A stretch of DNA of 24,944 nucleotides. It comes from Planctomycetota bacterium. Lineage in GTDB: Bacteria; Planctomycetota; Phycisphaerae; Phycisphaerales; Phycisphaeraceae. The DNA lies in NCBI GenBank assembly GCA_039818285.1, contig JBCBUE010000001.1:23388-48331 (forward strand). The letters are read 5' to 3'. The notes beneath the pieces were generated by a model. It saw only the letters and a program-made list of their open reading frames with translations, was not told the origin of the DNA and did no database searches. Made by a program: the position numbers and the translations under genes. This document shows, one piece after another, positions 6,718-24,944 of this stretch (the first letter of the stretch is position 1; every line of letters starts with the position of its first letter).

Positions 6718-7233
6718 TTGGAACAGTTCGCGGTCATCCGAGCCATCCTCAACGATCGAGACCGCCTGTTCGCCTACATCTGGTCGATCTTGGGGAACGT
6801 TCATCAGGCTGAAGACGTGCTACAGGAAGTCACCATCGTGGCGATCGAGAAGTGCAACGAGATCGAGAACGAGTCCGCCGTGCGGGCCTGGTTGCGGACG
6901 GTGGCCAGGCTCAAGTCGATGGAAGCGATCCGAGCGTCCCGCCGTCAACCAGCCGCGATGGACGCGGCGGTGCTGGACCAGATCGGGCGGGCCTGGCAAC
7001 GGTTGGACGGCCAGAAGACCAGCGATCTCGTCGACGCTTTACAAGCCTGCGTGAACGAGCTGTCACCCAAGGCCCGCAAGATCGTCAAGCTGCGCTACGT
7101 CGACGCGATGAAGTCCGGCGAGATCGCCGAGTTGCTTGAACGTAAAGTCGCGACGGTCTATCAGGCCCTCACCCGGGCCCACCGAGCCTTGGCCGAATGT
7201 GTCCGCCGACGAACAGGGCTGGCCAATGCCTGA
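6718..7233 (+). CDS. ECF-type RNA polymerase sigma factor (sigma-70 family, planctomycete-type group)
   Basis: 171-aa ORF with a TTG start and AGAGG 5 nt upstream (6708-6712). Region 2-like: DRLFAYIWSILGNVHQAEDVLQEVTIVAIEK. Region 4 HTH-like: LSPKARKIVKLRYVDAMKSGEIAELLERKVATVYQALTRAHRAL. The stop overlaps the start of the next gene. Confidence 0.85.
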   Translation: MEQFAVIRAILNDRDRLFAYIWSILGNVHQAEDVLQEVTIVAIEKCNEIENESAVRAWLRTVARLKSMEAIRASRRQPAAMDAAVLDQIGRAWQRLDGQKTSDLVDALQACVNELSPKARKIVKLRYVDAMKSGEIAELLERKVATVYQALTRAHRALAECVRRRTGLANA

Positions 7234-8812
7234 GCACCCCAGCGACATCCAGGAAGAGGCGCGTTGGCAGGAACTGGCGGTCATGCACCTGGGAGGCGAG
7301 GCAGGCGACGCACAGCAGCGCGAGCTCGTTGCGCTGCTCCGAGATCGGCCGGACCGCCAGGACCGTTACGTGATGATCTGCCTGCAGGCGCGGCTGCTGG
7401 CAGCCCGGCTGGCCGGGGTGTTGCAGGAGGGGCTGGCCGAGGACTGGTGGCCCCGGCAAGCCATGCGCGACCTGCTCGCGTTGGAACTGAAGAGTGAGGC
7501 GAAACCCGTTGATCTGACCGCGCGTCTGGATGCCGAGCAGTCGGCGGAGGCATTGCGACTGACGCCCGTGGAAGACGCTTCCCGGGGTGAGGGCCGCCGC
7601 GTCATCGTGATCCCTTGGGCGCTCGTTTACGCCGGTTTCGCCGCAGCGGCGGCGCTGGTCTTTGCTTTGGCGTGGTTCGCGTTGCCAGGCCCTGGCCAGA
7701 CACACTTGCCGAACACGCACGCCGAGGCCGTTTCGCCAAAGCCCGAGTCACCATTTACCGAAGACCAACCGCACCCCCCGCTGATCCCGGTTGTCGCGAC
7801 GGTCACCGAGCTGTATGAGCCGGCCTGGGCCGAGGCTCAAGGCAAAGCCTTTGCCCGACCAGCCCTCGGCGACGAAGTCCGCGAACAGGATGTGCTAGCC
7901 CTGACCTCAGGCCTGGTCGAACTCACGACCCGGCGAGGTGCGGTGGTCGTGATTGAAGGGCCGTGCGAAGTCGTCCTGACCGGCGACAACGGGGTAAGCC
8001 TGCCACGAGGGACCCTCTCAGCCCACTGCCCGCCCGAGGCAGTGGGCTTCGTGGTTCAGACCCCGACCGGACGGATCGTGGACCTGGGCACGGAGTTTGT
8101 CGTCAATGTCGATGAGGCCGGTCGAACCGAGACGTTGGTCAACTTAGGCTCGGTCGCGGTGGGCAACGGCGGTTCAACCCCACTGACGCTGACCTCTGGC
8201 CAATCCGCTGCGATCGACGCGAACACCCGTTTGGTCGCATTGCAGGACCTGAGCCGGTCGAACCTGAACCAACGCAGCCCACAGGATCGGCTCGAGCTAC
8301 GGCGGGTCGGGATCAGGCAAGCCAGCGAGAAGCTGCATCTCACCGATCCACCCGACCGGGCCCCCAACCACACCGTCGCCGATCGCGAACGGGTCCTGCT
8401 GATCGCCGAGCGCCAAGGAGTGTTGCTCAACGATCCGCTTGAAGTCACCACGACCGCCACAGGCCGACTAACCGATATTGAGGGCTCGAGCGGTTGGCTG
8501 GAAGCCCAGGTCCCCATGGACAGCTACCTGATCCATGCCAGCGTGAGCCCGGAAGACCCGATGCGCAACTTTGCGGTCTCAATCTCTTTCGACCGCCCGA
8601 TCCTCGGCGTCGCGGCGACCGTGCCGCACCTGGATGGCACGGATGCCGCGTTCGGCAACCAGCAGACCGTCTACACCCCCAACAACCTCGACCGACACCT
8701 CGAGTTCGGCGACGTACTCGAGATCACCCACGACCGGCGCACGCTGCGTCTGTGGATCAACGTCGGCACCGCCATGGATCAGTTGCGTGTTTTCGTCGGT
8801 TCGGAACGCTGA
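7226..8812 (+). CDS. FecR-family transmembrane anti-sigma factor with an uncharacterised C-terminal domain of about 210 aa
   Basis: I place the start at ATG 7226, which overlaps the sigma gene stop (ATGCCTGA). The ORF-track start at 7136 lies inside the sigma gene. There is a single TM segment, VIVIPWALVYAGFAAAAALVFALAWFAL. The FecR-like beta region is LTSGLVELTTRRGAVVVIEGPCEVVLTG...GFVVQTPTGRIVDLGTEFVV. Confidence 0.8.
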   Translation: MPEHPSDIQEEARWQELAVMHLGGEAGDAQQRELVALLRDRPDRQDRYVMICLQARLLAARLAGVLQEGLAEDWWPRQAMRDLLALELKSEAKPVDLTARLDAEQSAEALRLTPVEDASRGEGRRVIVIPWALVYAGFAAAAALVFALAWFALPGPGQTHLPNTHAEAVSPKPESPFTEDQPHPPLIPVVATVTELYEPAWAEAQGKAFARPALGDEVREQDVLALTSGLVELTTRRGAVVVIEGPCEVVLTGDNGVSLPRGTLSAHCPPEAVGFVVQTPTGRIVDLGTEFVVNVDEAGRTETLVNLGSVAVGNGGSTPLTLTSGQSAAIDANTRLVALQDLSRSNLNQRSPQDRLELRRVGIRQASEKLHLTDPPDRAPNHTVADRERVLLIAERQGVLLNDPLEVTTTATGRLTDIEGSSGWLEAQVPMDSYLIHASVSPEDPMRNFAVSISFDRPILGVAATVPHLDGTDAAFGNQQTVYTPNNLDRHLEFGDVLEITHDRRTLRLWINVGTAMDQLRVFVGSER

Positions 8813-8868
8813 ATCTCTATTTCATGGGCGGCGTGCCCGTCGTTTTCTGCTTCTCAGGAGGTTTCAAG

Positions 8869-9513
8869 ATGGCTCAGAACGTGCTCACCCTCTCCGTCCT
8901 CTCGCTCGCAACAGCGGTGGGGAGCGGCGCAATGGGCGCCACGCTCTACAGCGCGGACTTCAATGACCCCGGCGATTACGCGGGATTCGTCGATTTTGGC
9001 AACCGCCTGACCGGAGACACAGTGGATGGCGGCGGGACGTTGACCGGCGTCACGAACGTCGGGGACCCGCAGTTGCGGGTCGGCGAAGTCGCCAGCCCGC
9101 TCAACCTGACGTTGGAGGACCTGGAGACGATCACCATCCGCATGCGCGTGAGTGAGACGAACAACGGCGTCTTCACCGACCCCGCAACCGCTGGGAACGT
9201 TGGAGCGCAGCTGCGATGGGGACTCGTGCCCTATGGGTCCCCGGGGGCGACCAACGTGCCCGGAGCGGGGGCAAACCTGCTCACTCTAGAATCGTCGGTC
9301 GCGGATGGGGGTGGCTACTACATCCTGACTTACGATGTTTCTTCGCTGTCGGACCCGGACGATCTCGACTCCCTGCGATTCGATCCTACCGACCAACTCG
9401 TCGGCGCGTTTATCGAAGTCGACTACTTCCGCGTCATCGGTGTTCCCGAACCCGCCTCTCTGGCGCTGCTCGCTGTTGGCGGGCTGTGCATCGTCGATCG
9501 GCGTTGCCGATGA
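8869..9513 (+). CDS. Small secreted protein with a PEP-CTERM sorting signal (P1)
   Basis: ATG at 8869 is preceded by AGGAGG (8856-8861). Signal peptide: MAQNVLTLSVLSLATAVGSGAMG. C-terminus: VPEPASLALLAVGGLCIVDRRCR, that is PEP (at 9445-9453), a hydrophobic helix and an Arg cluster. The part of the ORF upstream of 8869 is Arg/Pro-rich off-type sequence. Confidence 0.85.
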   Translation: MAQNVLTLSVLSLATAVGSGAMGATLYSADFNDPGDYAGFVDFGNRLTGDTVDGGGTLTGVTNVGDPQLRVGEVASPLNLTLEDLETITIRMRVSETNNGVFTDPATAGNVGAQLRWGLVPYGSPGATNVPGAGANLLTLESSVADGGGYYILTYDVSSLSDPDDLDSLRFDPTDQLVGAFIEVDYFRVIGVPEPASLALLAVGGLCIVDRRCR

Positions 9514-9584
9514 ACGATTTCTTTCTTGGCATAGTGTCGCTCAATCGCCTCACGGTGTCTTCCTCATTTCTGAAAGGTCGTGCC

Positions 9585-10400
9585 ATGCAATCCCGAGTCC
9601 AGCAAGGTTTCACGCTGATCGAACTGTTGGTCGTGATCTCCATCATCGCGCTATTGATCGCCATCCTGTTGCCCTCCTTGGGTGCGGCTCGGCGAGTCGC
9701 AAGGCAGATCCAGAGCTCAACACAGGTTCGCGGCATCCATCAAGGGCTCTTCATCTATGCGCAGTCTGCGAAGGGGCTTTATCCAGGGGTCGATACGATC
9801 TCCGACACGGGCAGCGAGGCTTTTACCGACGCGGCCGACATTGCGCGGTACTCCTCCGGCGGCGTGTTAGCCGGCTCACACGCCAACGCCAGGTGGATCA
9901 TGCTCATGGAGGGTGACTACTTCGCTCCGGATTACGCCATCAGCCCGGGTGAAACCGAAACCGAGAAATTGACGACCTTCGACCGCCAAGCCGCGACGGT
10001 GTACACGATCGATAATTACATGTCTTCTTTCGCCCTGTCCCAACTCAATCTCGCTGATAACTCCCCGGCGCCTGGCCGACTCGGTGAATGGTCGGACACC
10101 GCCAATTCCAGTTCGGTCGCGGTCTCTGACCGAATGCTGTCCGGGGTCAATTCAGTCGTTTCGACGCACGCCAGCATCTGGCAGGACGACCCGGGCAAGT
10201 GGGTCGGCTCGATCGCATACAACGACAACCACACCGAGTTCAGCGACACCTCGGAAGTTGAGGGTACGGGCTACGGCGACATCCGCAACGATTTGCCAGA
10301 CAACCTCTTTGCCGACAACACGCCCGGCGAGCAGAACTCGGTCAACCACGCCAACGCCAAGCAAATCGCGAATGGCGCGTCGACGGTAGCTCTTCCCTAG
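9585..10400 (+). CDS. Pseudopilin-like protein with a prepilin-type N-terminal cleavage/methylation domain, a DUF1559-like divergent member (D1)
   Basis: ATG at 9585. Leader MQSRVQQG|[32 protein letters not shown] is the classic G|FTLIELL prepilin motif followed by the planctomycete DUF1559-type helix. The C-terminal SIAYNDNHTEF resembles the DGH strand, but with DNH in its place. Confidence 0.85.
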   Translation: MQSRVQQGFTLIELLVVISIIALLIAILLPSLGAARRVARQIQSSTQVRGIHQGLFIYAQSAKGLYPGVDTISDTGSEAFTDAADIARYSSGGVLAGSHANARWIMLMEGDYFAPDYAISPGETETEKLTTFDRQAATVYTIDNYMSSFALSQLNLADNSPAPGRLGEWSDTANSSSVAVSDRMLSGVNSVVSTHASIWQDDPGKWVGSIAYNDNHTEFSDTSEVEGTGYGDIRNDLPDNLFADNTPGEQNSVNHANAKQIANGASTVALP

Positions 10401-10502
10401 CCGTTCACGATCGTCACGCCACATCAGGCATACGCGCAGGCAGGTCGCGGTTGATCTGCGTCTCGGATTAAAACAGTCGCTCTACCTCAGGACACGAAAT
10501 CA

Positions 10503-12002
10503 ATGCGAACACTCCCACGCTATGTACTCACGTGGCTGCTTCTCTCCCTGACGGTATCGGCCGCACAGGCCGCGGACCGCCCCAACATCGTGATGATCTT
10601 CACCGACGACCAGCGGGCCGACGCCGTTGGGTACACGGGCAATCAGGCGGTATCGACGCCTCACCTCGACCGCTTGGCCAAGCGCGGGGTCGTGTTCAAC
10701 AACTGCTTCGTGAACACGTCGATCTGCGCGGTCAGCCGGGCGAATCTCCTTGCCGGGCAGTACCCCGGCCGGCACGGGATCGATGACTTTTTCAAGACCT
10801 TCAGCGCTCGGCAGTTGCGTGACACGGTGCCCGGGCGATTGCAGCGAGCCGGGTACCAGACCGCGTTCTTCGGCAAATGGGGCATCGGCGATCGGCCCGA
10901 CGCGACGCACCAAGGCGCAGCGGTGTTCGACTATTGGGCCGGCCAACCGATGCAAACCAACTTCTTCTACGAGCCAGACTGCCGGTTTGTGAACTTCGAT
11001 GGCTTCGCCCGCCCGCTGGACGACCTGTGCGACTGCCCCGCCGACAGCAAGGGGCGGGTGGGTTTCCGCAACCGGATCGGCAAGGCGAACCTGAAGGACC
11101 CGATCCAAGCCGACTCGACCGTCGTCCCGATGAAGGTCGAGCAGTTCCTCGATGGGCGAGACCCGGACAAACCGTTCTGCATGATGCTCTTCTTCAAGGG
11201 GCCGCACTCGCCGTTTGGGGACTGGGACCCGGCGGTCGAACACGTGACCGACAACCTGAACATGCCCGTCCCGTCGAGCGCGACGGTCCCGCTTGCGCAG
11301 CGCGAGCCGAACTTTATCCGCAAGTCGCTCGGCGCCCCCAGCGGGATGCGGTACCTCAACCACCCGTCCGCGCTGGATCAACACCTCCGCGACTACTACC
11401 GCCTGATCTCGAGCCTGGACCTCGGCGTCGGCCGGGTGATGGAGGCGCTCGAGGCCCGCGGGCTGGCCGAGAACACCGTGGTCCTCTTCACCTCAGACAA
11501 CGGCCACTTCAAGGGAGAGCACGGGCTGGCGGGCAAGTGGCTGATGTACGAGCCCTCGCTGCGGGTTCCCGGGTTCATCTACGACCCGCGGGCCGAGGCC
11601 GAGACCGGCGGCACGGTCAGCACCCGCCCGGTGATCACCACCGACTTTTCGGTGACCATGCTGTCGCTGGCCGGGCTCGACATCCCCGACTCGATGACCG
11701 GCTTGGACCTGACCCGTTTGGCCGAAGACCCCAACGCCGCGGGCTGGCGGCAAGACGTGTTCTACGACCACCCCTACGGCCACGGCGGAGCGATCCCCAC
11801 CACCGTCGGTGTCCGCACCCCTCGGTACAGCTACATCCGCTACACCGACCAGACACCGGTCTACGAACAGGTGTTTGATCTCCAAGAGGACCCGAACCAG
11901 CTGAACAACCTGATCGACTCGGCCGATCCAGAACTGATCCGGTCGCTGCGGGCACGGTGCGATGAGTTGATGAAACAGGTCGGCCCGATGGCGAACCGTT
12001 GA
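10503..12002 (+). CDS. Sulfatase (S1 family) with a non-canonical active-site pentapeptide, CAVSR
   Basis: 499-aa ORF. Signal peptide: MRTLPRYVLTWLLLSLTVSAAQA. Also IVMIFTDDQRAD, ICAVSRANLLAGQYP (10725-10739), FGKWG and LFTSDNGHFKGEHG. Confidence 0.85.
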   Translation: MRTLPRYVLTWLLLSLTVSAAQAADRPNIVMIFTDDQRADAVGYTGNQAVSTPHLDRLAKRGVVFNNCFVNTSICAVSRANLLAGQYPGRHGIDDFFKTFSARQLRDTVPGRLQRAGYQTAFFGKWGIGDRPDATHQGAAVFDYWAGQPMQTNFFYEPDCRFVNFDGFARPLDDLCDCPADSKGRVGFRNRIGKANLKDPIQADSTVVPMKVEQFLDGRDPDKPFCMMLFFKGPHSPFGDWDPAVEHVTDNLNMPVPSSATVPLAQREPNFIRKSLGAPSGMRYLNHPSALDQHLRDYYRLISSLDLGVGRVMEALEARGLAENTVVLFTSDNGHFKGEHGLAGKWLMYEPSLRVPGFIYDPRAEAETGGTVSTRPVITTDFSVTMLSLAGLDIPDSMTGLDLTRLAEDPNAAGWRQDVFYDHPYGHGGAIPTTVGVRTPRYSYIRYTDQTPVYEQVFDLQEDPNQLNNLIDSADPELIRSLRARCDELMKQVGPMANR

Positions 12003-12522: not shown

Positions 12523-12550
12523 TTGACATCGGCCATTTTTCCCGTATATT
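12523..12550 (+). promoter_or_regulatory. Sigma70-like promoter: TTGACA - 16 nt - TATATT
   Basis: TTGACA at 12523-12528 and TATATT at 12545-12550, inside an AT-rich island (about 12330-12650) in an otherwise high-GC window. It lies about 100 nt upstream of the P2 start codon. Confidence 0.55.
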
Positions 12551-12656
12551 TTCGATAGATCGATTTTCGCGGTGTCATGTAGCGTTTCTCTAAATACAGT
12601 CTCAGACCTTTGATGGTCTAGTCAATTAACGATGACTCTCTAACTAGGAGGTTTTG

Positions 12657-13292
12657 ATGAATAGCAAGTACGGAATGCTGCTCGGTGCGGGCCTGTCGCT
12701 GCTGGTCGCGCACTCGTCGTCGGCGGCGATCGTCGCCAGCTTCGAGTTTGACAACGCCGGTCAGCCCGAAGGCTGGACCCTGAACAACGCATTACGCTCG
12801 GTCAACGGGAATGGGTTCCTGCGTGGCAACGCCAGTACCAACGACCCGCAGATGATCCTCGACGAGAGTCTTGAACTCACCCGTACCGCCGCTTCGACCG
12901 CCTGGGACGAGTTGATCGTTGTGGTGAGCGAGTACGACGCGTTTAGCAACAACCCCGGCGATGCCGGCAGCCTGATCACCGATACGGATACGACCGGAGT
13001 TGTGGCGATCTTCAACCTTCAGGGTGGGGTCCTCACTGAAAACCTAGGCACCCCGACGGCCTCTGCCGTCGACAGCAACGGGTTCGTGACCCTGACGTGG
13101 GACATCAGCGCACTCTCGACCGCGACCACGGGTCGCATCCGGATCGACCCCGTGGGCGGGCCGGACACGACCGGCAACTCGTTCTTCGTCGACTCGATCA
13201 CGCTTACCGACGACAACCCCATCCCCGAGCCCGCTTCGTTGGCCCTCGTTGGCCTGGGCTGCCTGGTGATGGCTTCGCGCCGTCGCAAGTGA
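12657..13292 (+). CDS. Small secreted protein with a PEP-CTERM sorting signal (P2)
   Basis: ATG at 12657; the ORF track starts one codon earlier, at TTG 12654. AGGAGG lies at 12646-12651. Signal peptide: MNSKYGMLLGAGLSLLVAHSSSA. C-terminus: IPEPASLALVGLGCLVMASRRRK (PEP at 13224-13232). Confidence 0.85.
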   Translation: MNSKYGMLLGAGLSLLVAHSSSAAIVASFEFDNAGQPEGWTLNNALRSVNGNGFLRGNASTNDPQMILDESLELTRTAASTAWDELIVVVSEYDAFSNNPGDAGSLITDTDTTGVVAIFNLQGGVLTENLGTPTASAVDSNGFVTLTWDISALSTATTGRIRIDPVGGPDTTGNSFFVDSITLTDDNPIPEPASLALVGLGCLVMASRRRK

Positions 13293-13321
13293 GCCAAGTT
13301 GATTTTTGTTGAAATCCAAAG

Positions 13322-13437: not shown

Positions 13438-14976
13438 ATGCAGCAGCGACCGATCGGACGCGAAGAGTCAAGCACTTCCACCCTTAGGAAGCCAATCGTG
13501 AATGCCAGCGTCTCGAGATGGTCTGCGTTTGTCATCGTTTTCCTGTCGCTGCTCACCGGGCGGACCACTTCGGTCGTGGCGGAGCGCATTGACGACCGCC
13601 CCAACATCATCTGGGTGTTCTGCGACGACATGGGGTGGGCGGACCTGGGCGCGAACGGCTCGGTGGACGACGCCAAGACGCCGAACCTCGACGACCTGGC
13701 CGAGCGGGGCGTGCGGTTCACCAGCGGCACCATCACCGCGCCCCAGTGCTCGCCCAGCCGCGCGGGCCTGTTGACCGGGCGTTACCAGCAGCGTTTCGGC
13801 TTCGGCCACATCGGGCTTGGCCCGTTGCCCTTGTCCGAGATCACCATCGCCGAGCGCCTGGCCGACGCGGGGTACGCCACCGGCATGATCGGCAAGTGGC
13901 ACCTCGAACCCAACGCGGCGACCCCCGACTTCAACCGGGAACGCACCGGAGACCCCAAGCGGGTTCCGCCGCCGGAGGAGTTCCTCCGTTACTTCCCCGA
14001 GCAACGCGGTTTCACGGACGTGTACAAAGGGGAGATCCAGCAGTACCGCCGGACGTACCGGCTCAACGGGCAGGACTTGCCCGAGGGCGCCGGCCCGATC
14101 CAGACGGTGCAGCACCCCGGCTACCGCTTGACCACGCAGACGCAAGCGGCGTTGGCGTTCATCACGCGGCATCGCGATCAGCCATTCTTCCTGTACCTGG
14201 CCTATTTCGCGCCGCACGTCCCGCTGGAAGCGACGCCCGAGCTGTTGATGCGTTTCCCCGGGCCGATGGCCGAACGCCGCCGGCACGCGCTGGCGATGAA
14301 CGCCGCGATGGACGACGGTGTCGGCGCGATCGTCAAACGCCTCGAGACGCTGGGCCTGGCGGACAACACCATGATCGTGTTCCTCTCGGACAACGGCGCT
14401 CCGATCAAGATCACGAAGGAAGACCGCACGCTCGAGTGGAAAGGCGGGGCTTGGGATGGCTCGATCAACGACCCGCTCAATGGCGAGAAGGGGACGATCC
14501 TGGAGGGCGGCATCCGCGTGCCGTTCGTCATGGCGTGGCCGGGGCAGATCCCGGGCGGGCAGGTGGTCGACGAGCCCATCAGCAGTCTCGACCTGGCCGC
14601 GACGAGCATGGCGATGGCCGGGCTGGAGCCGGCCGAGACCATGGATGGGGTCGACCTGCTGCCGAGCCTGGTCGATGGCGAGCCCATAGTCGAGCGCGAC
14701 CTGTTCTGGCGGTTCTGGGGGCAGTCGGCGGTGCGTCGGGGGGACTGGAAGCTGCTGGTGCTCGCCACGGGCGAGCGTTACCTGTTCAATCTCGCCGACG
14801 ATCCAAGCGAGCAACACAACTTGGCGTCGGAGCACCCCGATCGCGTCGACCGCCTGTACCGGTCGCTCGAATCCTGGGCCGGGCAACTCGAGCCCGCGGG
14901 GTTGCCAAGCGGCAACCTGAACGACCAGGAGCAGAAGTTCTACGAGGCGTTCCTCGGTCGGCCCATCGATCGATAA
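13438..14976 (+). CDS. Formylglycine-dependent sulfatase (S1 family)
   Basis: The start is uncertain. One option is ATG 13438 with GGAGG 11 nt upstream. The other is GTG 13498 with AGGAAG 6 nt upstream, which gives the cleaner signal peptide MNASVSRWSAFVIVFLSLLTGRTTSVVA. The ORF-track start at 13306 overlaps the terminator and is unlikely. Motifs: IIWVFCDDMGWAD, CSPSRAGLLTGRYQ (Cys codon at 13747), GKWHL, FLSDNGAP. Confidence 0.9.
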   Translation: MQQRPIGREESSTSTLRKPIVNASVSRWSAFVIVFLSLLTGRTTSVVAERIDDRPNIIWVFCDDMGWADLGANGSVDDAKTPNLDDLAERGVRFTSGTITAPQCSPSRAGLLTGRYQQRFGFGHIGLGPLPLSEITIAERLADAGYATGMIGKWHLEPNAATPDFNRERTGDPKRVPPPEEFLRYFPEQRGFTDVYKGEIQQYRRTYRLNGQDLPEGAGPIQTVQHPGYRLTTQTQAALAFITRHRDQPFFLYLAYFAPHVPLEATPELLMRFPGPMAERRRHALAMNAAMDDGVGAIVKRLETLGLADNTMIVFLSDNGAPIKITKEDRTLEWKGGAWDGSINDPLNGEKGTILEGGIRVPFVMAWPGQIPGGQVVDEPISSLDLAATSMAMAGLEPAETMDGVDLLPSLVDGEPIVERDLFWRFWGQSAVRRGDWKLLVLATGERYLFNLADDPSEQHNLASEHPDRVDRLYRSLESWAGQLEPAGLPSGNLNDQEQKFYEAFLGRPIDR

Positions 14977-15531: not shown

Positions 15532-15560
15532 TTGACACTATTATGAGTTTAATTCATAAT
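15532..15560 (+). promoter_or_regulatory. Sigma70-like promoter: TTGACA - 17 nt - CATAAT, embedded in an inverted repeat
   Basis: TTGACA at 15532-15537 and CATAAT at 15555-15560, in an AT-rich island (about 15370-15640) some 75 nt upstream of the P3 start. The inverted repeat CTATTATGA (15538-15546) / TCATAATAG (15554-15562) spans the spacer and the -10 box. Confidence 0.5.
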
Positions 15561-15636
15561 AGGTTCATTGCGGGTCGGCAGTCGTCGGCTCACCCTTTTC
15601 GAAGGCTCCGATTCACGTTCCTCAGGAGGTCTCAAA

Positions 15637-17710: not shown

Positions 17711-18477
17711 CGGATTCACCCGCATGTAATTTAGTTCCGGGCAAGTGCTGGCTAGGTGTCGTTTTCACGCTCGGCGTTGCCGCGACGCCCTTCTCGCAAG
17801 CCGAGGAGGTCGTGTACCGCGAGACGTTCCCCAATCCAACAGGCCAAGCCCAATCGCTCGTTGAATACGCGTGGACGTATCACCTCGGCCCGGCGGGCTG
17901 GGACGAGACCCGCAACGACGCGACCCAGTCGCTGGTCAACGAGAGCCGTGGCTCGCAGCCCGACGCCGCGCCCGTCGCTTCGGGAGACGACGCGACCTCG
18001 CCCAATGGCTACGTGGTCAACGCCCTCGGGCCGGACGGACTCGATGACGATCCCTGGTGGAATCGCCTCAGCCTGTACGTCACCGAAGAGGTCGCGATCG
18101 ATCAATCGACGCACGCGCTCACCGCCATGAGCGTCGATCTGGCTGTGAGCCAACCCGACGCCGCACGCTTCGTCGTTCGCGTCGGCGATCGATGGTTGGC
18201 GTCGGCTGAGGCTTTCGAGCCCACTCCGCTGGCGGGATACGCCGTGTACGACCGATTCGCCGCCGATCACGCCGAGTGCCGGCTCGATTTCCACGTCGCC
18301 GAGTGGCTGCCCCTGGCGTTCGTGCCGGGCACGACCATGAGCCTCGACCTCGACACCACGCCGATCACCCTGCCCGACGGCCCGCTCACCGCCGTGGGCC
18401 TGCTGATTCAGCCCACCGGGTTCGAGGCGTTCGACAACTTCACGATCTACGGCGTTTCCAACACGCCCTCCCCATGA
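17707..18477 (+). CDS. Secreted hypothetical protein. It has the same size and layout as the PEP-CTERM proteins but no anchor, ending in ...VSNTPSP (P5).
   Basis: ATG at 17707 overlaps the regulator's stop. Signal peptide: [32 protein letters not shown]. The mature N-terminus [12 protein letters not shown] and the C-terminal strand [13 protein letters not shown] parallel the corresponding parts of P1-P4. Confidence 0.65.
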
Positions 18478-18506
18478 CTCTCTTTTCCCCGACTGGGAGA
18501 CCTTTT

Positions 18507-19301
18507 ATGCTCGCCTCTGCATCGCCCCAACCGCATCGACGCCACGCCTTCACGCTGATCGAGCTGCTCGTGGTCATCTCGATCATCGCGCTACTGATCG
18601 CCGTCCTGCTGCCCGCTCTTCAGGCGGCTCGAGAGACCGCCCGTGCGACAAAGTGCGGCGCGACCCTCCGGCAGATCGGCATCGCCGTCGCCGCGTACGA
18701 AGTGGATTACGGCGTGATGCCCATCGGCATTCACAGCTTCAGCCCGGTCTATTTCGATTGGACCTTCAGCCTCGCCGACGATTACATGGGCGGCGGCGGC
18801 GACGGCCCCGCGATCGGCCAGCAACGCGAGCGTGTCCTGCAATGCCCGAGCGCCGAGCAAGCCGTCGAAACACCGGGCAGCGATGCCAACCACTACTCGT
18901 CGCACCCACGGCTGATGCCCAACGTCCTCGATCAAGACTTCCACGCCGGCGGCGGCGCGCTGCTGCAGGCTTATCGATCCGACCAGGTCCTCGACGCCAG
19001 CGACAAGTTTCTTGTCATCGACGGAGCCCTGAACCCCAGCCAGAACGACAGCGCCGAGCCGATCGCGCGAAACATCGACGGATTCCGAATCTTCTACCAA
19101 GGCCTGGTCGAGGCGCCAGGAACCGATCTCGACGTCACGATCGATACCGGCGATAACACCGACTCGGTCGGAAATACCCAGCAGCCTCGCTTCCGCCACG
19201 GCGGCAACTCGACCGCCAACGCGGTACACGTGGACGGACACGTTCAGACACATCGCTTCGGCGAGATGACGGCCAGGGCCACACGTCTGATCGAACCCTA
19301 A
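18507..19301 (+). CDS. DUF1559-type pseudopilin-like protein with a prepilin-type N-terminal cleavage/methylation domain (D2)
   Basis: ATG at 18507, with GGAG 7 nt upstream. An alternative in-frame ATG at 18474 overlaps the preceding stop codon. N-terminus: ...HRRHA|[33 protein letters not shown]-terminus: [20 protein letters not shown], the His...DGH signature of the DUF1559 family. Confidence 0.85.
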
Positions 19302-19343
19302 TGCTCAGCCACGAGAACGACGCAAGGATCGAAAGCCGATCGC

Positions 19344-21596
19344 ATGCAATTACCAACCCTGTTTCATCTCGCACGTCGTTCTCGATGCCGAGGCCATCTT
19401 GGAGCGATCGGGATGTCACTGATATTCGTATCGGCGAGCGCCGATGTCGCGCTCTCGGAAGCGGCGCACGAGCACAAACACGGCACCTGGCAGCCGCGTG
19501 CCATGGTCACCGCCGAGGCCCGCGCCGCCGGTGTGACCGTCGGCGGCGAGGGCGCCCAGTGGCCGCAGTCGATCGACATCGATCCGGTCACCGGCGAATT
19601 CCTCGTCTTCTCGACCGACGTCGGCGGGCTCTGGCGCAGCATCGACGGCGGGGCCACCTGGGAACCGGCCAACGTCGGCTACACGCCGCGTGGCGGGTGC
19701 GGCATCGCCATCGACCCGAACTTTCCTGAGCGCGTGATCAGCGTCGGCAGCAACTCGATGGGGTCGGCCGAGAACGGCCTGTACCTCAGCGAAGATCGCG
19801 CAGCGTCCTGGCGAGCGGTGATGAAGGTGCCCATGTCAGGCCGAGAAGACCGGCGCCGCCAAGTCGCGTTCGACCCGACGACGGGCGACGACGACGCGGG
19901 CCTGACGCGCGTGGCCTATTGGTCGCGCGGCCGCGAGGTGCAACCGGACATCTGGGGTGAACTGGAGATCGACCCCGGCCTGTACCGCAGCGACGACGGG
20001 GGCCGACACTGGACACGCCTCGACGGCGCCGCCGACGCAGCCGGCCACGCGGCGCTCGCGGTGCACCCGACGACGGGTCGGCTGTACGCCGCAAGCGAAC
20101 GCGGGGTCTACGTCAGTGACGACCGCGGCTCGACGTTCCACCGAGTGCTCGACACACCCGCGACAAGCATCGGGGTGAGTCCAGATCGGCCGAACGCGGT
20201 GTGGGTGACGCACCCCGACGGCCTCTCAAGCTCGAGCGACGCCGGCGAGTCGTGGTCCGCCATCGAGACGACCGGGCTCGAAGAGCCCATCGCCGGCGAG
20301 ACCGGCCGCGACGCGGCGCCGACGCCCCGCCGCAACGTCGTGTTCGGCGCCTTGCGTGTCAGCCCCGCCGACGCCGACCGGATGGTCATGCGCTCTCTCG
20401 CCGACGACTGGCGCTGGCTGCGTCACGTCTCCCACGACGGCGGGCGGACCTGGCGCCTCGGCGAGGTCGACTCATCGCTCGCGTTCTTCCCGCTGAACGC
20501 CAGGCAACTCATGTTCGACTGGCACCCGACCGATCCCGACGTCGTGTGGTCCTTCGGGGGCGACTGGCCGACTCGGAGCGACGACGGCGGTCAAACCTTC
20601 GAGTGGGCGGGCAATGGGCAAAACGCCGTCTTCGTCGCCGGCCACTTCAACTTCAACCCGCATCATCCCGGCCTGCTGTTCCTCTCCAGCCAGGACTACA
20701 ACGGGGGCGTCACCCACGACGGGGGCGAGACGTGGCGATACACCCCCGTCTCCGGCGAGGGGTGGGGCGGCTTCGTGTACGGCGGATTGGCGATCTCGCC
20801 GACCGTGCTGGTTGGCGGCCATGCCCGAGGCGGATGGGGCGCCGAGCGGGTGCTGTCGATCAGCCGTGACGGCGGCGCGTCGTGGTCCGAGTCGCCCGAC
20901 GTGAGCTGGACGAGCGATCGCGGCGACCCGACGTACGGCGTGGACGTCGGCTTGGTAGATCCGATCGACCCCGACCGCGCGTTCATCGCCGGCTTCCGCA
21001 CCACCGACGGTGGCGCGACGTGGTCACGAATGGACGGCGTGGACGGCGTGTACGCGGCAAGCCGGTCGTCCAGCCGACTCTTCGGCGTCGAAGCCGACGC
21101 GGCTCGCTCCCGACTGGTCGTCAGTGACGACCACGGCCAGACCTGGAAGGAGCTGATCCAAATCGACGGCTCGATCGACGACGTCTCGGTCACGCCGGAC
21201 GGATCGACCGTCTACCTCGCGAGCCAGTCTCGCCTGTGGCGCTACCGCGTCGACGGCGATCGCGAACGCGTCTTGGGCAACCCGCTGGTGCTGATCGACA
21301 CCCCGCCGACGTCGACCGGCCGCCATCGGATCGACTCGGTCGCGGTCGACCCTCGCCATCCGTCCACGGTGTTCGCCGGCCAACGAATCGACCTGCACGC
21401 GGCCGACGTCGGCGTGATGCGTTCTGACGACGGCGGAGCGACGTGGCACAACCTCAACGCGAGCGCCCCGCTTGGACCGGGCGAGATCGTCGATGGGGGC
21501 CGCGAGCCCCAGTGCATCCGGGTCGACCCGCACACCGGCGACCTCTGGGCCACCACCGGCTGCTACGGCGTCTGGGTCTATCGCCAGGCCAACTGA
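19344..21596 (+). CDS. BNR/Asp-box repeat double beta-propeller protein, GH74-like (xyloglucanase-family fold) or sortilin/VPS10-like; secreted
   Basis: 750-aa ORF with a signal-like N-terminus (LGAIGMSLIFVSASA). Twelve Asp-box (S-x-D-x-G-x-T/S-W/F) motifs lie between 19638 and 21449: SIDGGATWE, SEDRAASWR, SDDGGRHWT, SDDRGSTFH, SSDAGESWS, SHDGGRTWR, SDDGGQTFE, THDGGETWR, SRDGGASWS, TTDGGATWS, SDDHGQTWK, SDDGGATWH. The size and repeat number fit two 6-7-bladed propellers. Confidence 0.7.
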   Translation: MQLPTLFHLARRSRCRGHLGAIGMSLIFVSASADVALSEAAHEHKHGTWQPRAMVTAEARAAGVTVGGEGAQWPQSIDIDPVTGEFLVFSTDVGGLWRSIDGGATWEPANVGYTPRGGCGIAIDPNFPERVISVGSNSMGSAENGLYLSEDRAASWRAVMKVPMSGREDRRRQVAFDPTTGDDDAGLTRVAYWSRGREVQPDIWGELEIDPGLYRSDDGGRHWTRLDGAADAAGHAALAVHPTTGRLYAASERGVYVSDDRGSTFHRVLDTPATSIGVSPDRPNAVWVTHPDGLSSSSDAGESWSAIETTGLEEPIAGETGRDAAPTPRRNVVFGALRVSPADADRMVMRSLADDWRWLRHVSHDGGRTWRLGEVDSSLAFFPLNARQLMFDWHPTDPDVVWSFGGDWPTRSDDGGQTFEWAGNGQNAVFVAGHFNFNPHHPGLLFLSSQDYNGGVTHDGGETWRYTPVSGEGWGGFVYGGLAISPTVLVGGHARGGWGAERVLSISRDGGASWSESPDVSWTSDRGDPTYGVDVGLVDPIDPDRAFIAGFRTTDGGATWSRMDGVDGVYAASRSSSRLFGVEADAARSRLVVSDDHGQTWKELIQIDGSIDDVSVTPDGSTVYLASQSRLWRYRVDGDRERVLGNPLVLIDTPPTSTGRHRIDSVAVDPRHPSTVFAGQRIDLHAADVGVMRSDDGGATWHNLNASAPLGPGEIVDGGREPQCIRVDPHTGDLWATTGCYGVWVYRQAN

Positions 21597-21719
21597 CCCC
21601 CGCCCCGGTCAACCAGACAGTAAAGGGGTCGAAGACGGCGGGTTCCCGGGCTGCCGTGGCCTGTCGAGCCGGCCGATCGCCGGCGTAGCCGGGCGCCGTT
21701 CAGTCCAAGTGACGATTTT

Positions 21720-21777
21720 AAGCAACTAGTTGCTTGACTCGAGATGCGCGGCTCTGTAATCTAGAAACCAGTTGCTT
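21720..21777 (+). promoter_or_regulatory. Promoter (TTGACT - 17 nt - TAATCT) bracketed by two LacI-type operator candidates
   Basis: O1 is the perfect 16-bp palindrome AAGCAACTAGTTGCTT at 21720-21735, overlapping the -35 box TTGACT (21734-21739). The -10 box TAATCT lies at 21757-21762. O2, TAGAAACCAGTTGCTT at 21762-21777, matches O1 at 13 of 16 positions. The centres are 42 bp apart. Confidence 0.55.
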
Positions 21778-21804
21778 AAACGTGTGTCTGACTCAGAGGT
21801 TCCC

Positions 21805-22839
21805 ATGCCCCGCACCGCCAAAGGCAGCCCGACCATGCTCGCCGTCGCCGAGCACGCCGGCGTCAACAAATCGACGGTCAGCCGGATCCTCAACGACAGC
21901 TACCCCAAGGGTTTCTCCGTCCGCCCCGAGGTCCGCGAGCGTGTCCTGCGGGCGGCCAAAGAACTCAGCTTCAAGCCCAACCCCTTCGTCCGTGGGCTCA
22001 AAGCCAAGCGGACCAAGATGGTCGCCATGCTGGGTTTGCGCGACTTCGGCTGGTCCAGCCGGGGGGCCGACGAGCACGCCATCAACGCGATGATCGACGC
22101 CTTGGCCGACGCCGACTACGAGGTCTGCACGACCTTTATCAAGCCCGGCAACCCCGACTTTCAGCCGCCGCGGTGGCGTGTCGATGCCGCGGTGGTCGTC
22201 GGCAACTCCTCGGCCGAGCAGGTCAGCGAGCTCGATCAGTCCGGCATCCCCTACGTCACCGTCAACGGCCCGGCCGGCCCGGCGGGCGGATCGGTGATCG
22301 TCGACGACGCGCACGGCGCCGAGTCGGCCGTGCGCAAGCTGATTGAGCTCGGCCATACCCGTATCGCCTATCTCTACTCGGCGTTCGACGCGACGCCGCC
22401 CGCGGCCGACCGCGTGGCGCACGCCAGCGAGATCGACCGCCGCGACGCATACGTCGCCGCGATGCAAGAAGCCGGTCTCGAGCCCGTCGCCGGCTACGAC
22501 CGCACCGACTGGACCGCCGAGCAAGCGATCGAGCAGATCGTCGTTCGCGACAAGGCCACGGCGATCCTCTCTTATCACCACGTCATGGCCGTCCAACACG
22601 TCGCCGCGATCCAGCGGGCCGGACGACGCGTGCCGGACGACGTCAGCGTGCTCTGCTTCAACGACGCGTTTCCCACCGCCGAGATGCACCCGTCGCTCAC
22701 CGCGATGTCGCTGCCCGGCGAAGCGATGGGCCGCGAGACCGCCCGCATGATCCTCGACATGATCGAGGGCGGGACACCCAAGCAGATGCTGTTCTCCGAG
22801 TCTCTGATTCTCCGCGAGTCGACGGCCCGTTGTCGTTGA
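21805..22839 (+). CDS. LacI/GalR-family transcriptional regulator
   Basis: I place the start at ATG 21805, with GAGG upstream; the ORF-track TTG at 21772 lies inside the operator. HTH: PTMLAVAEHAGVNKSTVSRILND..VRPEVRERVLRAAKELSFKPNPFVRGLK. It is followed by a PBP-type effector domain (KMVAMLG, GHTRIAYL, VSVLCFND). Confidence 0.9.
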   Translation: MPRTAKGSPTMLAVAEHAGVNKSTVSRILNDSYPKGFSVRPEVRERVLRAAKELSFKPNPFVRGLKAKRTKMVAMLGLRDFGWSSRGADEHAINAMIDALADADYEVCTTFIKPGNPDFQPPRWRVDAAVVVGNSSAEQVSELDQSGIPYVTVNGPAGPAGGSVIVDDAHGAESAVRKLIELGHTRIAYLYSAFDATPPAADRVAHASEIDRRDAYVAAMQEAGLEPVAGYDRTDWTAEQAIEQIVVRDKATAILSYHHVMAVQHVAAIQRAGRRVPDDVSVLCFNDAFPTAEMHPSLTAMSLPGEAMGRETARMILDMIEGGTPKQMLFSESLILRESTARCR

Positions 22840-22883
22840 TCGCTCCGTCTCTGTCCGTGTGGACCCTTCAAGGAGGTTCTTGG

Positions 22884-23582
22884 ATGCCAACTCAGATGTT
22901 CAATGTGCTGACCGGCGGATTCGTAACCGTGACGACCCTCGCGATCGCAACGGCAAGCCCAACCGCGTCGGCCGCCGTCTTCACAGACGCCGGCAATTCG
23001 GGCGATTTCTTCGGCACCGCCAACCAGATGGCGATCTTCAACACGGGTCAGGACTACCTGATCGACGGCTCGTTCGAGGTCAGCTTCACGACCTACGACG
23101 GCGACGGCGGCACCCTCGAGGACGACAAGGCCCTCGGGACGATCGACTATCACGTCGCCAACATCGACCTTGGCCTGCCCGCTGGAGAGACCTTCACGGG
23201 CGTTGAGATCGACACCGCGACGTGGGACGGCCGATCCAACTTCGACGGCCAATCCGAGAGCGACATCTACATGGTTCAGCTCTCGGATGACGGCGTGACG
23301 TTTGGCGCTCCCATCGTGCTCGGCTTCACCACGCCCGTCGTTTCGTCGAACCCCGGCTTTGTCCTGTCGACCGGTTCGGCGGACGGCTTCTTCGCCGATT
23401 ACGTCCGGATCAGCATCCTGTCGCGCGTCGAAGCGGCCGGCTCGGGCGCCAACGACCCGTGGTCGTCGCGCATCGAGGAGATCCGCCTGACCTCCGGCGT
23501 GATCCCCGAGCCCGCGTCGCTCGCGCTCGTCGGCGCTGGCGTCGCGCTGGCCGGGCTCCGTCGCCGTCGGGCGGCCGACTGA
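22884..23582 (+). CDS. Small secreted protein with a PEP-CTERM sorting signal (P4)
   Basis: ATG at 22884 is preceded by AGGAGG (22871-22876). Signal peptide: MPTQMFNVLTGGFVTVTTLAIATASPTASA. C-terminus: IPEPASLALVGAGVALAGLRRRRAAD (PEP at 23505-23513). Confidence 0.85.
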   Translation: MPTQMFNVLTGGFVTVTTLAIATASPTASAAVFTDAGNSGDFFGTANQMAIFNTGQDYLIDGSFEVSFTTYDGDGGTLEDDKALGTIDYHVANIDLGLPAGETFTGVEIDTATWDGRSNFDGQSESDIYMVQLSDDGVTFGAPIVLGFTTPVVSSNPGFVLSTGSADGFFADYVRISILSRVEAAGSGANDPWSSRIEEIRLTSGVIPEPASLALVGAGVALAGLRRRRAAD

Positions 23583-23660
23583 CCTCTGCCCCGGCGTCGC
23601 CCGCAAGCGTCGCGGGGCTTTCCGTTCTGTTTCGCCTACCCTTTAGCAGGACTCTCTCTC

Positions 23661-24446
23661 ATGAAACGTCAAGGCTTCACCCTGATCGAACTGCTGGTCG
23701 TGATTTCCATTATCGCCCTGCTGATCAGCATCTTGCTGCCCGCGCTCGGCGCCGCCCGCGCATCGGCTCGCGATCTCCAGTGCAAGTCCAACTTCCGCCA
23801 GCTCGGCATCGCCAACCTCGCCTATTCCGTCGAGCACGGCGACCGCATGGCCGCGACGTGGGAGCACGGGTTCGCAGGAACATCGACCTTCTGGCAGGAG
23901 AACCTCGCCGAATACATCACCGTTCTCGAAGACGACGCCACCGCCACGACCCGCGAGCGTTGGCGTTCCAACCCCGACAACATGCTCAACTGCCCCGAGT
24001 CCGACTTCGGCGCGACAACGGATCGCTTCACAAGCGCCCCCAACAGTCTCATGCAAGGCGATCAGAACGGCGCAGACCCGTGGGACGGGTACGAGACCTA
24101 TGTGGTGCCGAACCCCTCTGAGATCATTATGTGCGGCGAGACAGACGGCGACCAAGGCGGCGCCGTCTCCAACAACCTGACCAGCGTCGACGGAACGATC
24201 GGTTGGGCCGGCGGCGGATTCGCGACTTCGATTGTCGGAAGCTGGTACTCCATCCCTGGCTTCCGCCACGGCGGTGACTACGAAGGAGCGGTGCCATCGG
24301 CGGCCGACCCGCTTCGAACCCTCGCCGGTCGGACGTCCAACCAGGTCTTGATGGACGGCCACGTCGACTCGTTCGAGCCCGAACAGCTCGTCGACAACAA
24401 CGGCGACGGCTACGACGGCAACGGCTCGCCCTGGCGCTGGTGGTAA
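23661..24446 (+). CDS. DUF1559-type pseudopilin-like protein with a prepilin-type N-terminal cleavage/methylation domain (D3)
   Basis: N-terminus: MKRQG|[33 protein letters not shown]-terminus: [11 protein letters not shown]...[12 protein letters not shown], the His...DGH signature with an insertion. Confidence 0.85.
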
Positions 24447-24529
24447 AGCCCACACGTCATCACCTCCTCTGAACGCCTGCGCCCGAGCGGTCAAGCGGCC
24501 GCTCGTGGCATTTGCGGAGACACCTCCCG

Positions 24530-24944
24530 ATGAAACCGTCCCACCTTGCTATCGCGCTGGCGTGTGCCTCGACCATCGTTTGTTCTCACGTCGGCGGCGT
24601 CCACGCACAAGGGGACGAAACGCCTTTCGTGCTCGACCGCGCGGCCGAGCCGGCCTACGGCCCCTGGCGGTCATCGCGGATCGGCGGCGGCGGCTACCTG
24701 GTCAACGGGCTTTTCACCACCGACCCCGACGTCATGTACTGGTACAGCGACGTCGGCGGCGTCTACCGCTCGGACACCGCCGGCCGGTCGTGGCGGCAGA
24801 TCAACGGCACGTCCGACGCTCCGGCGTTCGCGAACGTCCGCTCTCTGCTCGTGGACCCGCGCGACCCCGATCACCTGATCGCGGCAACCGGTTGGCAGTG
24901 GGGTGAGCGCGAAGGCATCATGCTCTCCAACGACGCCGGCGAGA
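24530..24944 (+). CDS. GH74-like / BNR-repeat beta-propeller protein, 5' fragment that runs off the window end. It is not in the supplied ORF track.
   Basis: My own translation of the frame from ATG 24530 (GGAG 10 nt upstream) gives MKPSHLAIALACASTIVCSHVGGVHAQGDETPF...WRSSRIGGGGYLVNGLFTTDPDVMYWYSDVGGVYRSDTAGRSWRQING...LSNDAGE, with no stop up to 24944. The GGGG[YF]-x20-D[VI]GG-x-YR-x5-W pattern is what I remember for GH74 N-termini. It parallels FSTDVGGLWRSIDGGATWE in the 19344 gene. Confidence 0.65.
   Translation, partial: MKPSHLAIALACASTIVCSHVGGVHAQGDETPFVLDRAAEPAYGPWRSSRIGGGGYLVNGLFTTDPDVMYWYSDVGGVYRSDTAGRSWRQINGTSDAPAFANVRSLLVDPRDPDHLIAATGWQWGEREGIMLSNDAGE

Follow-up and report, generated by a model that had tools for sequence, protein, structure and literature searches.

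A recurrent pairing of PEP-CTERM and pilin-like genes in candidate polysaccharide-utilisation cassettes of Phycisphaerae

The window considered here, a 24,944-nt stretch of a Phycisphaeraceae genome (GenBank assembly GCA_039818285.1, contig JBCBUE010000001.1), carries what appear to be four substrate-specific polysaccharide-utilisation cassettes, A to D. PEP-CTERM-type surface proteins (P) and pilin-like proteins (D) are encoded in them beside sulfatases (S) and BNR-propeller proteins (G), and are predicted to be specificity-bearing accessory parts under the control of a cassette regulator. Judging from sequence comparisons, the pairing of P and D genes is non-random and belongs to Phycisphaerae and some other non-Planctomycetia lineages of the Planctomycetes-Verrucomicrobia-Chlamydiae (PVC) superphylum, not to the DUF1559 family overall. 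How the two proteins might act together is a matter for tentative models, which are weighed below.

Architecture and expression signals of the cassettes

All 20 credible genes among the open reading frame (ORF) calls of the window lie on the forward strand, in DNA of 62-70% G+C. Annotation of the window proteins with Pfam and NCBIfam profiles reproduced every gene, coordinate and gap of the original prediction, and the starts proposed there yield intact ORFs of the families named (Table 1). D1, D2 and D3 each have a P-type gene directly upstream (71, 29 and 78 nt) and an exported enzyme directly downstream (gaps of 102, 42 and 83 nt). The full cassettes had been said to carry distinct classes of sensor, and Pfam agrees, with an extracytoplasmic function (ECF) sigma factor and FecR-like protein in cassette A, a GntR-Peripla_BP_3 regulator in C and a LacI-family regulator in D. 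The co-localisation of such regulators with sulfatases and BNR proteins, by which a polysaccharide-utilisation locus (PUL) is recognised, is thus found in the window. The predicted absence of a TonB-dependent transporter and of SusD also stands, as the Pfam scan of all 20 window proteins returned no match to TonB_dep_Rec, Plug, SusD or RagB. What survives of the PUL-like organisation is the order of regulator, P, D and exported enzyme, which recurs in other Phycisphaerae and in metagenome contigs, without SusC/SusD. Genes for a prepilin peptidase, an assembly ATPase, a platform protein or a secretin are absent from the window, and Rfam detects no RNA families in it.

Gaps within cassettes are short and, in order, measure -8, 56, 71, 102, 76, -4, 29, 42, 44, 78 and 83 nt, the first being the 8-nt overlap of the ECF sigma and FecR genes. 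The P2-S2 gap measures 145 nt. Between cassettes the gaps are 654, 660 and 208 nt. The promoter islands predicted between cassettes are borne out in the two large gaps, where the GC fraction drops to 0.58-0.60 and sigma-70-like sites match at 11/12 positions. The terminator predicted between P2 and S2 was likewise located, as a hairpin with a 12-bp stem. P2 has a promoter and a terminator to itself, which makes a single operon improbable for cassette B; P2 is probably monocistronic, and S2 would be served by read-through or by a promoter of its own. The gene order predicted for cassette B stands.

A promoter-like TTGACT-17-TAATCT site upstream of lacI is flanked by a perfect 16-bp palindrome (AAGCAACTAGTTGCTT) and by a second copy matching it at 13/16 positions. 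The pair lies 30-85 nt upstream of the gene, and none is expected in shuffles. Repressor-controlled promoters have this layout, and the palindromes are a candidate LacI operator pair for a LacI-P4-D3-G2 unit.

Translation signals set the P genes apart. Among the window genes, only P1-P4 have a perfect AGGAGG Shine-Dalgarno sequence 5-7 nt upstream of the ATG (8855-8868, 12643-12656, 15623-15636 and 22870-22883). P5 has GGAGG, and the remaining genes have at most 5/6 matches, usually with poor spacing. Additionally, a stable hairpin (z < -1.5 against a mononucleotide-shuffle control) follows 21 of 39 P stop codons, with a mean z of -1.55; of the 39, 35 belong to non-redundant P-to-D junctions of metagenomes and four to the PEP-CTERM genes of the window. 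The hairpins suggest attenuation or separate transcription of P. Given the AGGAGG sites, the near-consensus promoters of P2 and P3 and the hairpins, P appears to be tuned for high expression and the genes downstream of it for lower expression.

Stem-loops, often with a T-run, stand directly downstream of the P stop codon in L105, L113, L127, L130, L134 and L135 (L numbers denote fetched loci). Further loci with such a stem-loop are L138, L143, L150, L156 and L159.

The P and D families and their recurrence

P2, P3 and P4 pass the gathering score of PF07589, whereas P1 misses it (19.2 vs 20.7) and passes TIGR02595 (17.9 vs 16). A C-terminal PEP motif, hydrophobic helix and basic cluster are present in P1-P4, and P5 lacks this tail. 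Matches to PEP-CTERM subfamily models all fall below cutoff, with the alignment confined to the tail. Full-length alignment (30% identity) is limited to P1 and P2; the other P proteins have just the sorting tail in common. In hhalign comparisons of the P5 family with P1-P4, alignment was likewise confined to the leader or to the final strand and the tail. A single P family was considered and is ruled out by these pairwise and hhalign comparisons, which leave several unrelated P families. Among 5.8 billion proteins, P1 has no detectable homologue but itself, its paralogue P2 being in the window. On such comparisons, P domains evolve extremely fast.

P5 had been predicted to be an anchor-less member of the group, and homology bears this out. 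An indexed search gave four close matches, and an exhaustive search gave 95 representative remote relatives at E <= 1e-3, about 60 of which carry a PEP-CTERM tail of the form 'PEP...hydrophobic...RRR'. In L001-L003, the gene immediately before the D2 orthologue is an orthologue of P5. A P5-family profile has no match in the PDB at E <= 10. Strand motifs of P proteins, 'F-x-D/E-F-D' near the N-terminus and 'D-N-x-x-hydrophobic' near the C-terminus, may hint at concanavalin-like jelly rolls.

In two xylanase loci, the PEP-CTERM proteins of L088 (8358-9875) and L089 (minus strand, 6003-7418) each carry a novel module of about 170 aa in duplicate. A dockerin/EF-hand-like repeat lies just upstream of their sorting signal. 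In the L088 protein it matches Dockerin_1 at E = 0.1 and EF-hand_1 at E = 0.02, and in the L089 protein it was read by eye.

D1, D2 and D3 match PF07963 (N_methyl) at 32-34 bits and also TIGR02532. Each has a class III signal peptide, with a basic leader, G or A at position -1, F at +1, E at +5 and a hydrophobic helix. The signature G|FTLIELL assigned to them is thus correct for the prepilin N-terminus of all three and incorrect at position -1 of D2. Ala replaces Gly there in D2 and in many relatives in the family alignment. Membership of DUF1559 (PF07596), proposed for all three, is likely for D2 alone, which passes the gathering score (38.7 bits against 23.3) over profile positions 1-46 of 268 only, and whose relatives bear PF07596 in precomputed annotation. 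D3 falls just under that score (22.5 bits), and D1 has no PF07596 match. D2 and D3 are 32% identical over their whole length, and D1 has just the N-terminal helix in common with them. The best N-terminal matches of D are GspG and GspH, with all equivalog scores far under their cutoffs.

The AlphaFold2 model of D2, with a predicted local distance difference test (pLDDT) score of 92.4, has a 52-residue N-terminal helix (residues 17-68) and a mixed alpha/beta head. Its resemblance to type IV pilins and GspG/ComGC, by sequence profiles and by Foldseek (best Foldseek E = 0.15), is confined to the helix. A solute-binding fold, as the name SBP_bac_10 would imply, was considered for D and is unsupported by Foldseek or by a sequence-profile search of the PDB. 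Positions conserved in the D family include a Cys pair, HYSxHPR and RxRH...DGH, and the pattern suggests a common scaffold with variable loops. Relatives of D2 number thousands, the closest named ones being from Phycisphaera mikurensis and Mucisphaera calidilacus, which puts the source of the window in class Phycisphaerae. For D1, the metagenome scan found no relatives. A DNA motif encoding the C-terminal RFRHGG...DGH of D2 is restricted to orthologues and is too specific to serve as a sampler.

Cassette C is syntenic across genera. Its counterpart in P. mikurensis (AP012338) reads PEP-CTERM/GntR-periplasmic-binding protein (PBP)/P5-like/D/BNR, that in GCA_039025495 reads GntR/P3-like/P5-like/D/BNR, and an ENA contig has PEP-CTERM/P5-like/D/BNR. 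In GCA_014207395 the order is rearranged to GntR/D/P3-like/BNR/BNR. Identities to cassette C are 46-56% for the BNR protein, 43-55% for D (37-52% for the heads), 30-46% for P5 and 50% for GntR.

Other enzyme families occur in the same setting, the neighbours in fetched loci having been called by simple ORF rules in high-GC DNA. In Mucisphaera, L088 reads LacI/PEP-CTERM (505 aa)/D/GH10/GH10 (GH, glycoside hydrolase family). L089 reads D/GH10/ATP-binding cassette (ABC) importer/xylose catabolism, with a divergent LacI/P/P/GH10/GH43 operon opposite. L001 of P. mikurensis has an anchor-less P-like gene/D/GH53/major facilitator superfamily (MFS) transporter/PEP-CTERM (562 aa). Simpler loci are L004 (LacI/D/GH10), L020 (GH30/D), L048 (heparinase-like/D/heparinase-like), L072 (LamG-GH42/D/DUF4838) and L090 (GntR-PBP/P/D). 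On an unrelated contig, L167 has the order of cassette A, ECF sigma/FecR+LamG/P/D/GH29/GH78, and its FecR+LamG protein is 40% identical to the window FecR across the FecR domain. Among these loci, the tightest and commonest adjacency is D then enzyme rather than P then D. The position of P varies, being upstream of the regulator, downstream of D or in a divergent operon.

Both partners group by the enzyme of their locus. With the helix removed, BNR-linked D heads are 33-62% identical, and GH10-linked heads are 43% (L088/L089), 33% (L004/L089) and 28% (L004/L088) identical; across locus types, the heads align weakly or not at all. Likewise, the P proteins of L088 (505 aa) and L089 (471 aa) align at 41% identity over a length of 389 aa and have a repeated module in common, and P3 is related to proteins of L003 and L087, both BNR loci. 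Because D heads and P domains group in this way, P and D appear to be kept with a given type of enzyme or substrate, yet they seem to diverge much faster than the enzymes.

The reach of the P-D pair was gauged in two samples. A genome scan with the D alignment covered 80 loci across the PVC superphylum (about 1.1 Mb), mostly matched on the pilin helix. Searched with a hidden Markov model of the sorting tail, these loci yielded just three PEP-CTERM genes, two of which lie at most 107 nt upstream of the central D gene, one in a Phycisphaeraceae and one in a Lentisphaerae genome. In this 80-locus scan, no PEP-CTERM gene stands beside a D gene of Planctomycetia. The D/DUF1559 genes of Planctomycetia (L005-L063) are longer, encoding 310-380 aa, and the usual next gene on the same strand is a small ORF, mostly of about 100-230 aa, a conserved partner unlike that of D in Phycisphaerae.

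The second sample came from a junction pattern at the DNA level (the start of PEP-CTERM, 150-210 nt, then FTLIEL). It matches twice in the window, never in 100 shuffles of the window, and in at least 120 stretches of metagenome contigs. Of 80 stretches fetched, 37 are true junctions, with a sorting tail, a stop codon and 78-151 nt to the FTLIEL codons. About 13 distinct loci have a readable gene downstream of D. In five of them it encodes a glycan-active or other exported hydrolase (GH29+GH78, GH123, SASA esterase, BNR_2 and phytase), and in the rest NIF3, PhyH, MoxR, cytochrome c peroxidase, CpXC or DUF3467. The adjacency of P and D had been expected to be conserved. It is so in Phycisphaerae and some other PVC lineages, and the 80 PVC loci show that it does not extend to DUF1559 at large. 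Its expected proximity to glycan-active enzymes is seen at multiple GH and BNR loci, alongside pairs next to NIF3, PhyH, MoxR and cytochrome c peroxidase.

In L105 (776-3588, the same locus as L120), the order is PEP-CTERM/pilin-like/beta-propeller phytase, and the phytase ORF starts at the stop codon of D. This phytase is an exported enzyme with a non-polysaccharide substrate.

Capture and delivery weighed against other explanations

The model we tentatively prefer, while granting it somewhat less than an even chance, is one of capture and delivery, in which an abundant P displayed by exosortase works with a low-copy filament subunit D that recognises the polymer. P would be exported, and an exosortase encoded elsewhere would cut its C-terminal anchor, giving bulk display at the cell surface. 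D would be cut by a prepilin peptidase and enter, at low copy number, a shared filament of the type II secretion or type IV pilus kind, where it would serve as a tip subunit or an alternative one. Recognition of the polymer would fall to the D head, with or without P, and would lead to delivery of the polymer to the outer membrane or across it. The sulfatase or hydrolase of the cassette would degrade the polymer, ABC or MFS importers would take up the products, and breakdown products would relieve the cassette regulator. Surface display of P, incorporation of D into a filament, glycan binding and uptake are the steps that we infer. In favour of this model we count the P-D-enzyme order of the window, the synteny of cassette C and the similarly built loci elsewhere, the grouping of D heads and P domains by enzyme, the true P-to-D junctions in metagenomes, the pilin-like D2 model, the expression signals that favour P and the operator-like palindrome at lacI. 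A bolder version makes P and D one device, with the substrate-specific pseudopilus subunit D carrying or docking P, as an exosortase-processed binding protein, and the filament seizing entire polysaccharide chains and drawing them via a secretin into the periplasm; this we consider unlikely.

Several observations weigh against capture and delivery. No glycan-binding domain or fold emerges from the searches, as Pfam at E <= 5 finds only the sorting tail in ten P proteins and Foldseek finds no PDB counterpart for the D2 head. The P5 model, built from a five-sequence alignment, has a pLDDT of 40 and is unreliable. D-enzyme loci such as L004, L048 and L073 have no P gene, and some P-D pairs adjoin genes for phytase, NIF3, PhyH, MoxR or cytochrome c peroxidase. 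The post-P hairpins and separate promoters mean that P and D may be transcribed separately. Additionally, the enrichment figures come from small samples, partly chosen by similarity to D2, with rough ORF calling.

The constant position of D just before an exported enzyme could also arise if D were a cargo-specific pseudopilin of type II secretion that recruits the adjacent enzyme, and possibly P, for export across the outer membrane or for surface tethering. Specificity would then lie in protein-protein contacts and not in glycan binding. We regard this, the main rival explanation, as conceivable but on balance rather unlikely. It would account for the most constant arrangement, D then exported enzyme, with three cases in the window and others in L001 (twice), L002, L003, L004, L048, L072, L088 and L089. 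The tracking of enzyme family by D head clades, the GspG and GspH matches and the P-D-phytase locus L105/L120, whose substrate is not a polymer, also fit. In addition, the authors of a verrucomicrobial study propose type II secretion as the export route for the alginate lyases encoded in a cluster bearing a PulG-like gene (PMC13274419). However, a single D may stand with two or more enzymes (GH10-GH10, BNR-BNR, GH29-GH78 and the several sulfatases around D1), and some P-D pairs have no exported enzyme downstream. Moreover, the type II systems known to us use one pseudopilin set for all cargo, which counts against such dedicated adaptors.

D might instead stay in the inner membrane, either processed or just anchored by its N-terminal helix, as an oligosaccharide binder or enzyme scaffold of the enlarged periplasm, with P as an independent surface or matrix protein, although we find this improbable. 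The 'bindosome' of archaea, in which sugar-binding proteins are made with pilin-type signal peptides, would be comparable. Names point the same way, since the Pfam short name is SBP_bac_10 and NCBI labels relatives 'PulG-like putative transporter', and the heads, at about 200 aa, would be big for the main subunit of a filament. There are also dozens of paralogues per genome (PMC10632474; PMC13274419). Yet the D2 model is unlike solute-binding folds, and only its N-terminal helix matches solved structures. L088 and L089, which encode ABC importers, supply their own SBP_bac_1 protein. The combination of F+1 and E+5 with a long helix is a filament assembly interface, and D keeps it, with both residues invariant and a helix of 52 residues. 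The least probable explanation, to which we give very little credence, is that no functional link exists and that two large, fast-evolving envelope families meet by dense packing of secreted genes or by hitch-hiking. P1 is an orphan, P domains are mutually unrelated, P varies in position with P2 probably monocistronic, and several P-D pairs have non-glycan neighbours, all as such a coincidence would have it. It is at odds with orthologous synteny that persists across genera at just 30-56% protein identity and with the grouping of both D and P by enzyme family. The junction pattern, absent from 100 shuffles and matched by many true junctions in metagenomes, argues in the same direction, as does the recurrence of the sigma-FecR-P-D-enzyme order on an unrelated contig.

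Predicted substrates, neighbouring genes and relation to known systems

The sulfatases of the window match PF00884 at E-values of 1e-47 to 1e-58 and have the maturation motifs CTPYR, CSPTR and CSPSR and the variant CAVSR. The variant is the unusual C-A-V-S-R of S1, which aligns to C-A-A-S-R of its closest solved relative, 6hr5 (E = 1e-65). The structure 6hr5 is the ulvan rhamnose-sulfatase domain of Formosa agariphila. With S1 nearest to 6hr5 and a rhamnose-isomerase-like gene in the strand block of S1, the genes on the left of the window point to a substrate that is sulfated and contains rhamnose. The DUF5722 gene follows two sulfatase genes by 33 nt and probably encodes a glycan-active enzyme that acts in one pathway with them. 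The label 'GH74-like', given earlier to the BNR enzymes, is in the case of G1 a fold-level guess. The BNR/Sortilin-Vps10 repeats are present, and beyond them there are a sub-threshold match to NF045728 (132.8 vs cutoff 175) and a weak match to 6p2m (E = 2e-4), the sole GH74-type structure found in the PDB.

Table 1. Genes and signals of the window, in order of position (HTH, helix-turn-helix; TAT, twin-arginine translocation)
Feature	Positions	Strand	Basis or remark
L-rhamnose-isomerase-like gene	9-1235	+	NCBIfam TIGR02635, 460 bits, below equivalog cutoff
Sulfatase (S1-type, TAT signal), upstream context	1380-2957	+	Pfam
Sulfatase (S1-type), upstream context	2997-4862	+	Pfam
DUF5722 protein, upstream context	4896-6575	+	Pfam, E = 1e-111
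ECF sigma, cassette A	6718-7233	+	Sigma70_r2/r4_2; TIGR02989 (Rhodopirellula/Verrucomicrobium family), 121.8 bits vs cutoff 124.55
FecR-like anti-sigma, one membrane segment, cassette A	7226-8812	+	PF04773, 23.4 bits vs gathering score 24
P1, signal peptide and PEP-CTERM, cassette A	8869-9513	+	TIGR02595 passed, Pfam gathering score missed
D1, type IV pilin-like, head unlike DUF1559, cassette A	9585-10400	+	N_methyl, 33.7 bits; GspG/IV_pilin N-terminal matches
S1, exported formylglycine-type sulfatase, cassette A	10503-12002	+	PF00884; 6hr5, E = 1e-65
Promoter-like site upstream of P2, TTGACA-16-TATATT, 11/12	12523-12550	+	
P2, PEP-CTERM, paralogue of P1 (30% identity), cassette B	12657-13292	+	PF07589, TIGR02595
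Intrinsic-terminator-like hairpin (12-bp stem and T8) directly downstream of P2	13318-13347	+	
S2, exported sulfatase, motif C-S-P-S-R, cassette B	13438-14976	+	PF00884
Promoter-like site upstream of P3, TTGACA-17-CATAAT, 11/12	15532-15560	+	
P3, PEP-CTERM, cassette C	15637-16452	+	PF07589, TIGR02595; relatives in BNR loci L003 (44%) and L087 (33%)
GntR-HTH and Peripla_BP_3 regulator, cassette C	16529-17710	+	Pfam; 50% identity to P. mikurensis counterpart
P5, exported anchor-less PEP-CTERM-family member, cassette C	17707-18477	+	Homology; no Pfam match
D2, DUF1559-type pilin-like, cassette C	18507-19301	+	PF07596, 38.7 bits; N_methyl
G1, exported 750-aa BNR/Sortilin-Vps10 propeller, putative glycoside hydrolase, cassette C	19344-21596	+	Pfam
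Operator-like palindrome AAGCAACTAGTTGCTT and second copy, upstream of lacI	21720-21777	n/a	
LacI-family regulator, cassette D	21805-22839	+	Pfam
P4, PEP-CTERM, cassette D	22884-23582	+	PF07589, TIGR02595
D3, pilin-like, borderline DUF1559, cassette D	23661-24446	+	N_methyl; 32% identity to D2
G2, N-terminal part of second exported BNR-type protein, gene cut by window end	24530-24944	+	Same gene cut in Logan contig L084

The cassettes resemble the PULs of Bacteroidota in that there is one locus per substrate, each with a dedicated sensor (ECF sigma/anti-sigma pairs included), and multiple paralogous loci per genome. In both, non-catalytic envelope proteins that bear specificity are encoded beside exported enzymes. 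Unlike PULs, the cassettes have neither a TonB-dependent transporter nor SusD. Their accessories are instead PEP-CTERM and pilin-like proteins, whose machineries are encoded elsewhere, and their regulators are mostly cytoplasmic LacI or GntR-PBP proteins.

D shares with GspG, GspH and ComGC the class III signal peptide, F+1, E+5 and the long hydrophobic N-terminal helix. However, the D heads, of about 200 aa, have no solved counterpart, and D genes, unlike those of gsp, pil or com operons, are scattered in catabolic cassettes. That a filament can mediate the uptake of a polymer is known from the competence pseudopilus. P resembles the PEP-CTERM substrates PepA and XDP1 in its N-terminal signal peptide, PEP motif, hydrophobic span, basic tail and many paralogues. 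To our knowledge, PEP-CTERM genes have been linked to exopolysaccharide and biofilm loci and not to catabolic cassettes with sugar repressors.

Two systems of the PVC superphylum are also close parallels. In Akkermansia muciniphila, the pilus-type locus MUL2 (Amuc_1099-1102, with the pilin-like Amuc_1102 and PilM) is needed for mucin uptake (PMC13174399). It is likewise a pilus-type locus, in a PVC bacterium, for uptake of a glycan, here one of the host. MUL2 differs in bringing machinery and pilin together in one conserved locus, with no separate paralogous pilin for each enzyme cassette, and no PEP-CTERM partner is described. In Verruconatronum alginivorum, a PulG-like pseudopilin gene, one of 67 paralogues, lies inside an alginate-induced lyase cluster (PMC13274419, 2026). 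A pseudopilin encoded outside the two induced clusters is also over-expressed on alginate (PMC13274419). This occurrence of a PulG-like pseudopilin inside a polysaccharide-lyase cluster is the nearest published observation to the one made here. V. alginivorum belongs to another phylum, Verrucomicrobiota; no PEP-CTERM partner is reported for it, and its authors discuss only type II export of enzymes, without a comparative analysis of pilin heads.

Planctomycetal polysaccharide uptake by pilins has been proposed in the 'fishing rod' hypothesis, for which no candidate subunits had been named (PMC12078418). Capture and delivery by P and D would accord with this hypothesis and, by analogy, with MUL2. 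DUF1559 is described as a family of unknown function and the largest paralogue group in Planctopirus (PMC10632474). CAZyme (carbohydrate-active enzyme) clusters of Planctomycetota are reported to be functionally uncharacterised, with 30-34% of their genes unassigned (PMC11131199). In the literature searched, no paper joins PEP-CTERM with DUF1559, prepilins or CAZyme clusters.

Among the major degraders of sulfated polysaccharides from algae and plants are Phycisphaerae and other PVC bacteria, which do not have the SusC/SusD machinery that accounts for uptake in Bacteroidota. The present analysis adds specific pilin-like and PEP-CTERM genes that lie within apparently substrate-specific, regulator-controlled cassettes, and adds that both P and D diversify along with the enzyme family. 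It offers concrete gene pairs with predicted substrates, namely xylan for the GH10 loci, galactan for the GH53 locus and sulfated rhamnan or ulvan-like glycans for the window, and a simple sequence signature by which P-D loci can be annotated in PVC genomes and metagenomes. If P and D were indeed one device, they would constitute a third 'selfish' route of polysaccharide uptake, independent of SusC/SusD and TonB. Such a device would couple sorting by exosortase with sorting by prepilin peptidase, two processes never linked before, and would supply a role for the largest group of paralogues in Planctomycetota that still lacks one.

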